Shown here piece after piece: positions 51,908 to 53,475 of a stretch of DNA of 64,000 bases (the stretch's first letter is position 1; every line of letters begins with the position of its first letter). Under the pieces are notes generated by a model. The model did no database searches. It saw nothing but the letters and a program-made list of their open reading frames with translations, and was not told the DNA's origin. Source of the DNA: Gammaproteobacteria bacterium. Its GTDB lineage: Bacteria > Pseudomonadota > Gammaproteobacteria > HK1. The DNA lies in the NCBI GenBank assembly GCA_965204915.1, contig OZ242023.1:1138840-1202839 (forward strand), given 5' to 3'. The position numbers and the translations under genes are program-made.

Positions 51908-52972
51908 GTGCTCGATTCACTCGAAGTGAGGGACTTCACGGCCTTCCCGGACGCCACGTTGCACTTCGCCCGGGGCCTCAACGTCATCGTGGGCGAGAAC
52001 GGGCTGGGCAAGACGCACCTGCTCAAGCTCCCCTATGCCGTCATGGCGGTGAGCGCAGAGGAAGGCAGGAGGCCGGACGGCCGGCAGCCCACCAAGGACC
52101 TGCTGCGGACTCGGCTCGCCGAAAAGCTCGTCAACGTGTTCCGCCCGGAAAGGCTGGGTCGTCTCGCACGCCGCCGGCAGGGTCACAGCCGATGCGAGGT
52201 AACACTGACGTTCAACGAGCAGGATACTTCCGTCGGATTCAATTTCAGCACGGCGAACAAATCCAAGGTCGGTGTCGAACGCGCCCCTTCGGCGTGGCGC
52301 GATCATGCTCCGGTGTTCCTGCCCACCCGCGAATTGCTGACGATCTACCCGGGATTCGTATCGCTGTACGAGACACACCACCTGGAATTCGAGGAAACGT
52401 GGCGCGACACCTGCCTGTTGCTCGGCTCGCCAACGCTCAAGGGGCCACGCTCATCGACGGTGGCCGAACTGCTGGAGCCCTTGGAAGAACAGATTGGTGG
52501 GCGCGTGTTTCTGGAAAAGCAGAGTGGTCGTTTCTACCTGCGGCCGTCGGGTTCCAGTGGCACCAGCGATATGGAGATGCCACTGGTCGCCGAAGGCTGG
52601 CGCAAGCTCGCCATGTTGATGCGTCTGATCACCACTGGTTCTCTGTACATCGATGGCTGCCTGTTCTGGGACGAGCCCGAATCCAACCTCAACCCGAAGC
52701 TGATCCGCGAAGTCGCGAGGGCGATCCTTCGTCTCTGCGAAGTGGGAATCCAGGTGTTCGTGGCGACGCACAGCCTCTTCCTCATGAGGGAGTTCGAAAT
52801 GCTCCTCCATCATGAATTCGCGGACGTCGAACAGCGGTGCTTCGCATTGCGCCGGGGCGACGACGGCGTGGAGGTTTCGCAGGTCGATCAGATCGGTGAC
52901 GCGGATCCGCTGATACTGCTGGACGAAGATTTGATGCAGTCGGATCGTTTCATCGAGGCGTTTCAAGGATGA
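51908..52972 (+). CDS. ABC-type/SMC-like ATPase (AAA_21/AAA_15 family)
   Basis: Walker A GENGLGKT, signature-like VAEGWRKL, Walker B/D-loop [12 protein letters not shown]-loop FVATHS. Confidence 0.88.
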
Positions 52973-53475
52973 TGGAGATCGCGGAAGGGGGCCTCACGTT
53001 TTCGTTCCCGGACCAGTGCGAAGCCGGCAAGTACGACGACTGGTCGTTCTACCGCAGCCAGTTCCAGTCCATGGCCGGCGGATCGATGGCGGTTGACATC
53101 CTCTGCCTTGCAGGCGGCGTTGCCTGGCTGGTCGAGATCAAGGACTACCGGCAATATCCCCGGATGAAGCTGAGCGATCTCTGCGACGAGGTGGCGCAAA
53201 AAGTACGCGATACGCTGTCGGGCTTGGCGGCGGCGAGCGCAAACGCCGACGATGCCAACGAGCAGGCACTCGCATGCCGAGCGCTGGCGATGCGCCGGTG
53301 GCGGGTCGCACTGCACCTCGAACAGCCGAGCGTGTCGTCACGACTCCGGCGATGGGCAGTCGATCCCGCCAGCATGAAATCGAAACTGCGCAAGGGATTG
53401 AAGGCCATCGATCCCAACCCGGTGGTTGTGGATAGCCAAAGGCCGCATCCCGACATCCCCTGGACCGTTCGATAG
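52969..53475 (+). CDS. Small putative PD-(D/E)XK nuclease, translationally coupled to the ATPase
   Basis: ATGA overlap; VDILCLAGGVAWLVEIKDY fits D-x10-11-E-x-K. Confidence 0.62.
   Translation: MMEIAEGGLTFSFPDQCEAGKYDDWSFYRSQFQSMAGGSMAVDILCLAGGVAWLVEIKDYRQYPRMKLSDLCDEVAQKVRDTLSGLAAASANADDANEQALACRALAMRRWRVALHLEQPSVSSRLRRWAVDPASMKSKLRKGLKAIDPNPVVVDSQRPHPDIPWTVR

Follow-up and report, generated by a model that had tools for sequence, protein, structure and literature searches.

The question raised by this locus is whether an ABC-type ATPase gene and the small gene that overlaps its end, both carried on a 64,000-nucleotide stretch of DNA from an uncultured gammaproteobacterium (hereafter the window), form an anti-phage system of their own kind or belong to one that has already been described. 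Our analysis points to the latter, with a probability of roughly 0.87: the locus reads as an intact member of HEC-02, in the same PADLOC model subfamily as a pair from Dickeya dianthicola, and its products are an ABC ATPase of the OLD/AAA_21 type and a small nuclease of the NERD-like PD-(D/E)xK kind. This figure also takes in the anti-phage mechanism proposed below and the probable arrival of the pair as a cassette. The HEC-02 system itself is not new, as it is already named, catalogued and experimentally tested.

HEC-02, or Hma-embedded candidate 02, was described in 2024 as a two-gene system whose ABC ATPase has a NERD-like PD-(D/E)xK protein as its partner (Payne et al., bioRxiv 10.1101/2024.01.29.577857). 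It was discovered inside Hma systems, most of its copies lie outside Hma, and embedding is not required. The tested pair was WP_024108366.1 and WP_024108365.1 of D. dianthicola NCPPB 3534 (Supplementary Table S2 of that study). When cloned in E. coli MG1655 delta-RM it made plaquing fall by orders of magnitude for at least two phages, and protection needed both genes (Figure S3 of that study). The authors leave open its trigger, its substrate and what hydrolysis does.

Both window proteins matched models of this system in PADLOC-DB v2 end to end. The ATPase aligned over residues 1-351 with positions 1-342 of the 344 in PDLC04146 (E = 1.2e-149) and the small protein over residues 3-167 with positions 4-168 of the 170 in PDLC04145 (E = 3.8e-64), which are both models of HEC-02. 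The same two models were also the best for the tested Dickeya proteins (E = 8.4e-183 and 1.2e-85, respectively), and we therefore assigned the window pair to the subfamily of the tested pair. By BLASTP the ATPase shared 52% identity with the tested Dickeya ATPase over 349 columns, at full length (E = 2e-133), and the small protein shared 44% identity with the tested partner, again at full length (E = 1e-50). The gene layout of HEC-02 was found here, with the genes adjacent and on the same strand and the ATPase gene 5' of the small gene, and the small protein carries the (D/E/Q)xK signature of the HEC-02 nuclease partner. Pfam returned the generic AAA_21 and AAA_15 alone for the ATPase, the ABC, RecF and Rad50 matches in NCBIfam were all sub-threshold, and scans of the small ORF against both collections gave nothing usable. 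The sequence-only reading that preceded this work had held that no named system matches the pair, which is wrong in view of these alignments; it had itself offered a match to a named system as grounds for refutation, and the HEC-02 models together with the tested Dickeya pair are such a match. Any PADLOC run would name the locus HEC-02, and it carries little weight as a discovery.

The labels of the two models in PADLOC-DB v2 are swapped with respect to the paper, the 170-position PDLC04145 (small protein) being called HEC-02A and the 344-position PDLC04146 (ATPase) HEC-02B. Other HEC-02 models follow the naming of the paper (PDLC04213, ATPase, 'A'; PDLC04228/9, small protein, 'B'). This swap is a labelling quirk and not biology.

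The window pair and the Dickeya pair have in common both protein families, the gene order, the tight coupling and the D...ExK motif, with sizes of 354 and 168 aa in the window versus 342 and 169 aa in Dickeya. All but one of the 72 positions that were invariant in our ATPase alignment are kept in the tested Dickeya protein, the exception being G29A. Unlike the Dickeya pair, the window copy is not embedded in Hma but sits at the edge of a defense and toxin-antitoxin (TA) island with an insertion sequence (IS) remnant adjoining, and its host is an uncultured gammaproteobacterium of approximately 65% GC.

Two ORFs overlapping by ATGA, as described from the letters alone, are indeed present on the + strand at the coordinates then given (Table 1), and both proved intact, being full length and keeping every family-invariant residue. 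The TGA of the ATPase gene and the ATG of the small gene share a common ATGA (...CAAGGATGATGGAG...). The GTG start of the ATPase gene is right, because the N-terminus of the protein aligns from residue 1 with its orthologues and reaches the first position of the PADLOC model. GC content was 0.59-0.65 across the locus versus 0.68-0.73 in the downstream housekeeping genes. A consensus scan of 51100-53800, which is uninformative at 65% GC, recognized no sigma-70-like promoter or terminator. As part of the best explanation as a whole, and with the likelihood given to it, both HEC-02 genes are very probably made from one transcript via stop/start coupling.

Table 1. Features of the HEC-02 locus, its surroundings and the related loci of the same genome. 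Plain coordinates are positions in the window.
Feature	Coordinates	Strand	Details and source
HEC-02 ABC-type ATPase gene	51908..52972	+	354 aa, GTG start; ORF list
HEC-02 small NERD-like PD-(D/E)xK protein gene	52969..53475	+	168 aa, ATG start; ORF list
ATGA start/stop overlap of the ATPase and small genes	52969..52972	+	read from sequence
Purine-rich Shine-Dalgarno-like stretch GAGAGGAAGAGG, just 5' of the ATPase GTG	51894..51905	+	read from sequence
Cassette block, 84% nucleotide identity to the same-genus HEC-02 locus L006/G004	51789..53623	+	blastn
First 33 codons of a nuoF-like gene; rest absent at the locus	51492..51590	-	tblastn with complete L006 NuoF, 91% identity, residues 1-33
ORF, IS3 remnant by sequence reading	51162-51920	-	no Pfam match
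PIN/VapC and MazE/AbrB-type pair	48373-49336		
BrnT gene	58117-58395		
Orphan HEC-02 ATPase paralogue, 352 aa, open frame	G000:C1:4437033-4438085 = L066 6031-7089	-	PDLC04146 E 8e-119
Second-subfamily HEC-02 pair, 338-aa ATPase and 166-aa partner	G000:C1 ~294.3-295.8 kb = L067 ~5280-6790	-	PDLC04213 E 1.2e-128; PDLC04229 E 1.5e-57

An alignment of 29 ATPase sequences contained 72 invariant columns. These included Walker A (G29-x-N-G-x-G-K35), a PTRE block at 139-142, a signature-like A228-E-G230, Walker B (W254-D-E-P257) followed by N260-L-N-P263, and the H-loop histidine H288, so that the full set of Walker A, signature, Walker B and H-loop first picked out by eye was found and is invariant in the family. 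The AF2 model of the protein (pLDDT 78) matched Rad50 and SMC heads as well as PtuA of Septu and retron systems (E = 1e-11 to 1e-12, TM approximately 0.5), and on the basis of these matches we assign it an ABC fold. The most conserved part of the family is a family-specific block starting at H158 (158-168), in which all but one residue is invariant. This block falls within residues 142-176 (window 52330-52435), the only stretch modelled below pLDDT 50, and it may form a surface that is ordered only in a complex, such as one docking the partner or the trigger.

For the small protein we aligned 40 sequences, in which D43, E56, D59 and K78 were invariant and K58 was kept in at least 90%; the D..E-x-K noted earlier in the 168-aa ORF thus corresponds to a conserved D43...E56-x-K58. 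In the AF2 model (pLDDT 90), D43 opens one strand of a hairpin, E56-x-K58 lies in the next, and a long helix carrying the invariant K78 follows, a predicted layout that is as expected of a PD-(D/E)xK core. The small proteins of two loci (L002 and L003) have Thr in the K58 column (IEVTDY and IEATDY) with K78 of the following helix unchanged, which hints either that K78 is the functionally essential lysine or that these two copies are inactive.

Foldseek comparison of the small-protein model with PDB and BFVD gave no match at E ≤ 0.001. The weak top matches below this standard were mostly PD-(D/E)XK proteins (AF1548, Hjc, McrC, MUS81-EME1, R.BspD6I, an arenavirus endonuclease, VRR-NUC and phage restriction endonucleases). 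When the small-protein alignment was run as a profile against PDB sequences there were 0 matches, and Pfam NERD (PF08378) did not match the protein at E ≤ 1. With hhalign, a NERD alignment assembled from 7 genes positive for the Pfam model matched the small protein with a probability of 73% (E = 3e-5) over 29 columns only, which are exactly the D...ExK hairpin. Taken with the structural comparison of Payne et al., the motif and this local NERD profile support the nuclease fold well, as a fold consistent with the sequence rather than one demonstrated structurally. A genome-wide search with PF08378 found another gene and not the small HEC-02 gene. This sole true Pfam NERD match of the genome (G000:C1:1119643-1119993, locus L043, E = 2.4e-18) lies approximately 19 kb before the start of the window. 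The open frame around it, approximately 1844 aa long and conserved in several genomes of the same genus, may encode a NERD-helicase or PglW-like protein.

Two other systems pair an ABC ATPase with a nuclease: PARIS comprises the AriA ATPase and the TOPRIM nuclease AriB, and Septu the PtuA ATPase and the HNH nuclease PtuB. Like PARIS, the window locus is a two-gene pair of an ABC ATPase sensor and a nuclease effector, and AriA models match the C-terminal third of its ATPase (E = 1e-15). It departs from PARIS in having a partner other than a TOPRIM protein, in matching AriA only in part, and in an ATPase approximately 100 aa shorter than the 55-kDa AriA. The likeness to Septu lies in an ABC ATPase combined with a small nuclease, with PtuA structures among the best fold matches (E approximately 2e-11, TM approximately 0.5); the differences are that the window partner is not an HNH protein and that PtuA HMMs cover residues 1-51 of the ATPase only. 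PARIS was rejected on finding no AriB TOPRIM/DUF4435 partner, the small protein matching HEC-02 models alone, and Septu on finding neither a PtuB HNH partner nor a full-length PtuA match. More generally, the AriA, PtuA, GajA, AbiLi and PD-T4-4 models matched the ATPase at E = 1e-8 to 1e-15, covering no more than its Walker A end or its C-terminal third, and with a partner of different fold we set aside PARIS, Septu, Gabija, AbiL and PD-T4-4 alike. The broader proposal made from the letters, of a PARIS- or Septu-like logic in which an ABC-type ATPase is coupled to a small PD-(D/E)xK-type nuclease as a two-gene anti-phage module, is supported.

To see how widely and how closely the two genes travel together, we scanned for homologues with one genome per species. 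This gave 39 loci with ATPase relatives, from Spirochaetia, Vicinamibacterales (Acidobacteria), Caldilineae (Chloroflexi), Bacteroidetes, Planctomycetota, Actinomycetota and many Proteobacteria. By tblastn the small gene was directly 3' of the ATPase gene in 32 of the 34 related loci with downstream DNA. In the 27 loci with clean ORFs the small gene started -11 to +10 nt from the ATPase stop, and the genes overlapped in 14 of them. Pairwise distances of the ATPase and of the small protein were correlated (r = 0.67, with 0 of 5000 Mantel permutations as high), which shows that the two genes are inherited together and diverge together. A large protein collection, clustered at 90%, contains 637 relatives of the small protein, almost all of them unnamed. 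Just 2 records of a plasmid collection held a homologue of it, and on this evidence there is no plasmid link. Close full-length copies (E ≤ 1e-140) were present in only 5 other genomes among 41 relatives and a broken copy in 1, a patchiness that argues against a housekeeping role. Compared with the same-genus copy L006, dN/dS was 0.34 for the ATPase gene and 0.51 for the small gene, values which indicate purifying selection on genes that evolve as fast as defense genes usually do. The comparison with a distant ortholog (L002) yielded no estimate, as dS was saturated.

Upstream of the pair lie Sel1-trypsin, CBS-domain, VapBC and AAA-ATPase_like/PDDEXK_9 genes, and downstream of it are convergent aldehyde-oxidase-type and aldehyde-dehydrogenase genes; the pair closes a defense/TA island. 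The setting beside IS and TA debris that the sequence-only reading had described is borne out by the TA genes in Table 1, the IS3 part coming from sequence reading. The window copy is embedded in neither Hma nor BREX, being flanked by the IS remnant and a nuoF fragment on its 5' side and by the aldehyde-oxidase-type gene on its 3' side, and PADLOC recognized none of the immediate neighbors as a system partner. A 525-aa fusion of AAA-ATPase_like (PF09820) and PDDEXK_9 at 49573-51150 is without a PADLOC match, with IS/nuoF debris between it and the HEC-02 pair, and we found no evidence that it forms part of the HEC-02 unit.

In addition to the cassette block of Table 1, blastn matched the piece 51491-51695, likewise at 84% DNA identity, to the same-genus HEC-02 locus L006 of genome G004, the flanks beyond both pieces being unrelated. 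In G004 a complete nuoF, divergently oriented, adjoins HEC-02, and the window retains the start of such a gene. The pair probably arrived as a cassette of approximately 2.1 kb copied from the nuoF-adjacent site of a related strain, possibly with the adjacent IS element as the vehicle. Part of the nuoF-fragment region, 51533-51655 (approximately 120 nt), has a second match in L066 at 11214-11336 (84.5%) besides the nuoF start, and may be a short repeated element. In L006 itself (7824-8060), the closest orthologous locus, ATPase similarity is lost before residue 9-12 and the open frame continues upstream into unrelated sequence, through either a frameshift close to the 5' end or an assembly indel.

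The genome as a whole contains three HEC-02-type ATPases and two nucleases. The first of the further loci, at 4.44 Mb, is an orphan ATPase gene that adjoins a complete nuoF in divergent orientation and shares 62% protein and 74% DNA identity with the window ATPase (dN/dS 0.56). Homology of the two loci at the DNA level breaks off after the first 44 nt of the small gene, so the nuclease of the orphan has been deleted. The orphan protein keeps 64 of the 72 invariant positions, including K35, D255, E256 and H288, and with them Walker A, Walker B and the H-loop; the eight changes are K73N, T140A, L159G, E162D, G179A, P191L, N262D and Q344R. That it is a second sensor acting in trans with the window nuclease and sharing this one effector, rather than a dying pseudogene, we consider a long shot. 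The likeliest history is one in which HEC-02 alleles stood beside nuoF in the genus, the resident allele lost its nuclease, and a G004-like allele was copied into the island together with the nuoF stub.

The other further locus is a pair of a second HEC-02 subfamily, placed between pglX (L067 7275-10265; PglX E = 0) and pglZ (L067 2913-5270; PglZ E = 9e-273) of a BREX system. Its placing is the 'embedded' one of Payne et al., and it agrees with the OLD-ABC and REase dyads of PMC12839542. Such dyads, of an OLD-family ABC ATPase and a PD-(D/E)XK REase, were described by Krishnan et al. (2020, NAR 48:10045), as that work is presented in PMC12839542, and have been reported across BREX (NAR 2026, PMC12839542). 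The window pair resembles them in that an ABC ATPase is paired with a stand-alone nuclease of restriction-endonuclease fold in conflict systems, often inside BREX. The dyads are a broad class and not a single family, and the placing of the window ATPase in the OLD clade comes from PADLOC and Pfam cross-matches only.

How the pair might act can be proposed by analogy with PARIS and Septu, with the ATPase as the predicted sensor/regulator subunit and the small protein as the predicted nuclease effector. The ATPase would oligomerise, bind the nuclease and hold it in check, and it would sense a phage cue. A change that depends on the nucleotide, through ATP binding or hydrolysis, would next release the nuclease or switch it on so that it cuts nucleic acid, and the outcome would be either destruction of phage DNA or abortion of the infected cell. 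Beyond the need for both genes, which comes from the Dickeya homologue, we infer these steps from the two better-known systems.

If the nuclease were a toxin kept in check by the ATPase, and phage were not sensed, the pair could be mainly a TA-like addiction module that stabilizes the island or a mobile element. VapBC and BrnT genes and an IS remnant are nearby, the pair moves as a compact cassette, and ATPase-restrained nucleases are toxic elsewhere, as in PARIS and Septu. However, in E. coli the protection given by the homologous Dickeya pair was phage-specific (bioRxiv 10.1101/2024.01.29.577857), and a homologue in only 2 plasmid records does not suggest a role in plasmid addiction, so we regard this explanation as unlikely. 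Addiction and abortive infection are in any case compatible and not mutually exclusive.

Slightly less likely again is that the window copy is a silent or decaying remnant without current function. This would fit the IS and gene debris adjoining the pair, the lack of a recognized promoter in the consensus scan of 51100-53800, the other copy in this genome that is without its nuclease, and the disrupted ATPase N-terminus of the same-genus L006 copy. Against it, neither window ORF is truncated or lacks any family-invariant residue, dN/dS is below 1 and the start/stop coupling is intact. A housekeeping role in DNA repair, as a RecF/Rad50-like ATPase with a resolvase-like nuclease, was rejected as scarcely credible: the N-terminus of the ATPase weakly matches SMC_N, RecF and Rad50 models, its fold matches Rad50/SMC heads and Holliday-junction resolvases are among the weak fold matches of the small protein, but RecF and Rad50 scores fall far below their cut-offs, the ATPase has no coiled-coil inserts, the distribution is patchy even inside the genus and scattered over phyla, and HEC-02 has been catalogued and tested as a defense system.

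As an intact HEC-02 pair, the locus adds one more high-GC, environmental member to the tested subfamily. It goes beyond the routine in two points only. One is the cassette tagged with nuoF, which clearly exemplifies cassette-like movement in which a nuoF fragment has hitch-hiked; the other is that a single genome contains three HEC-02 loci at different stages: intact, orphaned and BREX-embedded. Divergent intact members such as this one are useful for comparative and structural work on the mechanism of HEC-02, with its trigger, nuclease substrate and role of ATP, in which the conserved yet low-confidence 158-168 block of the ATPase may possibly also be of use.
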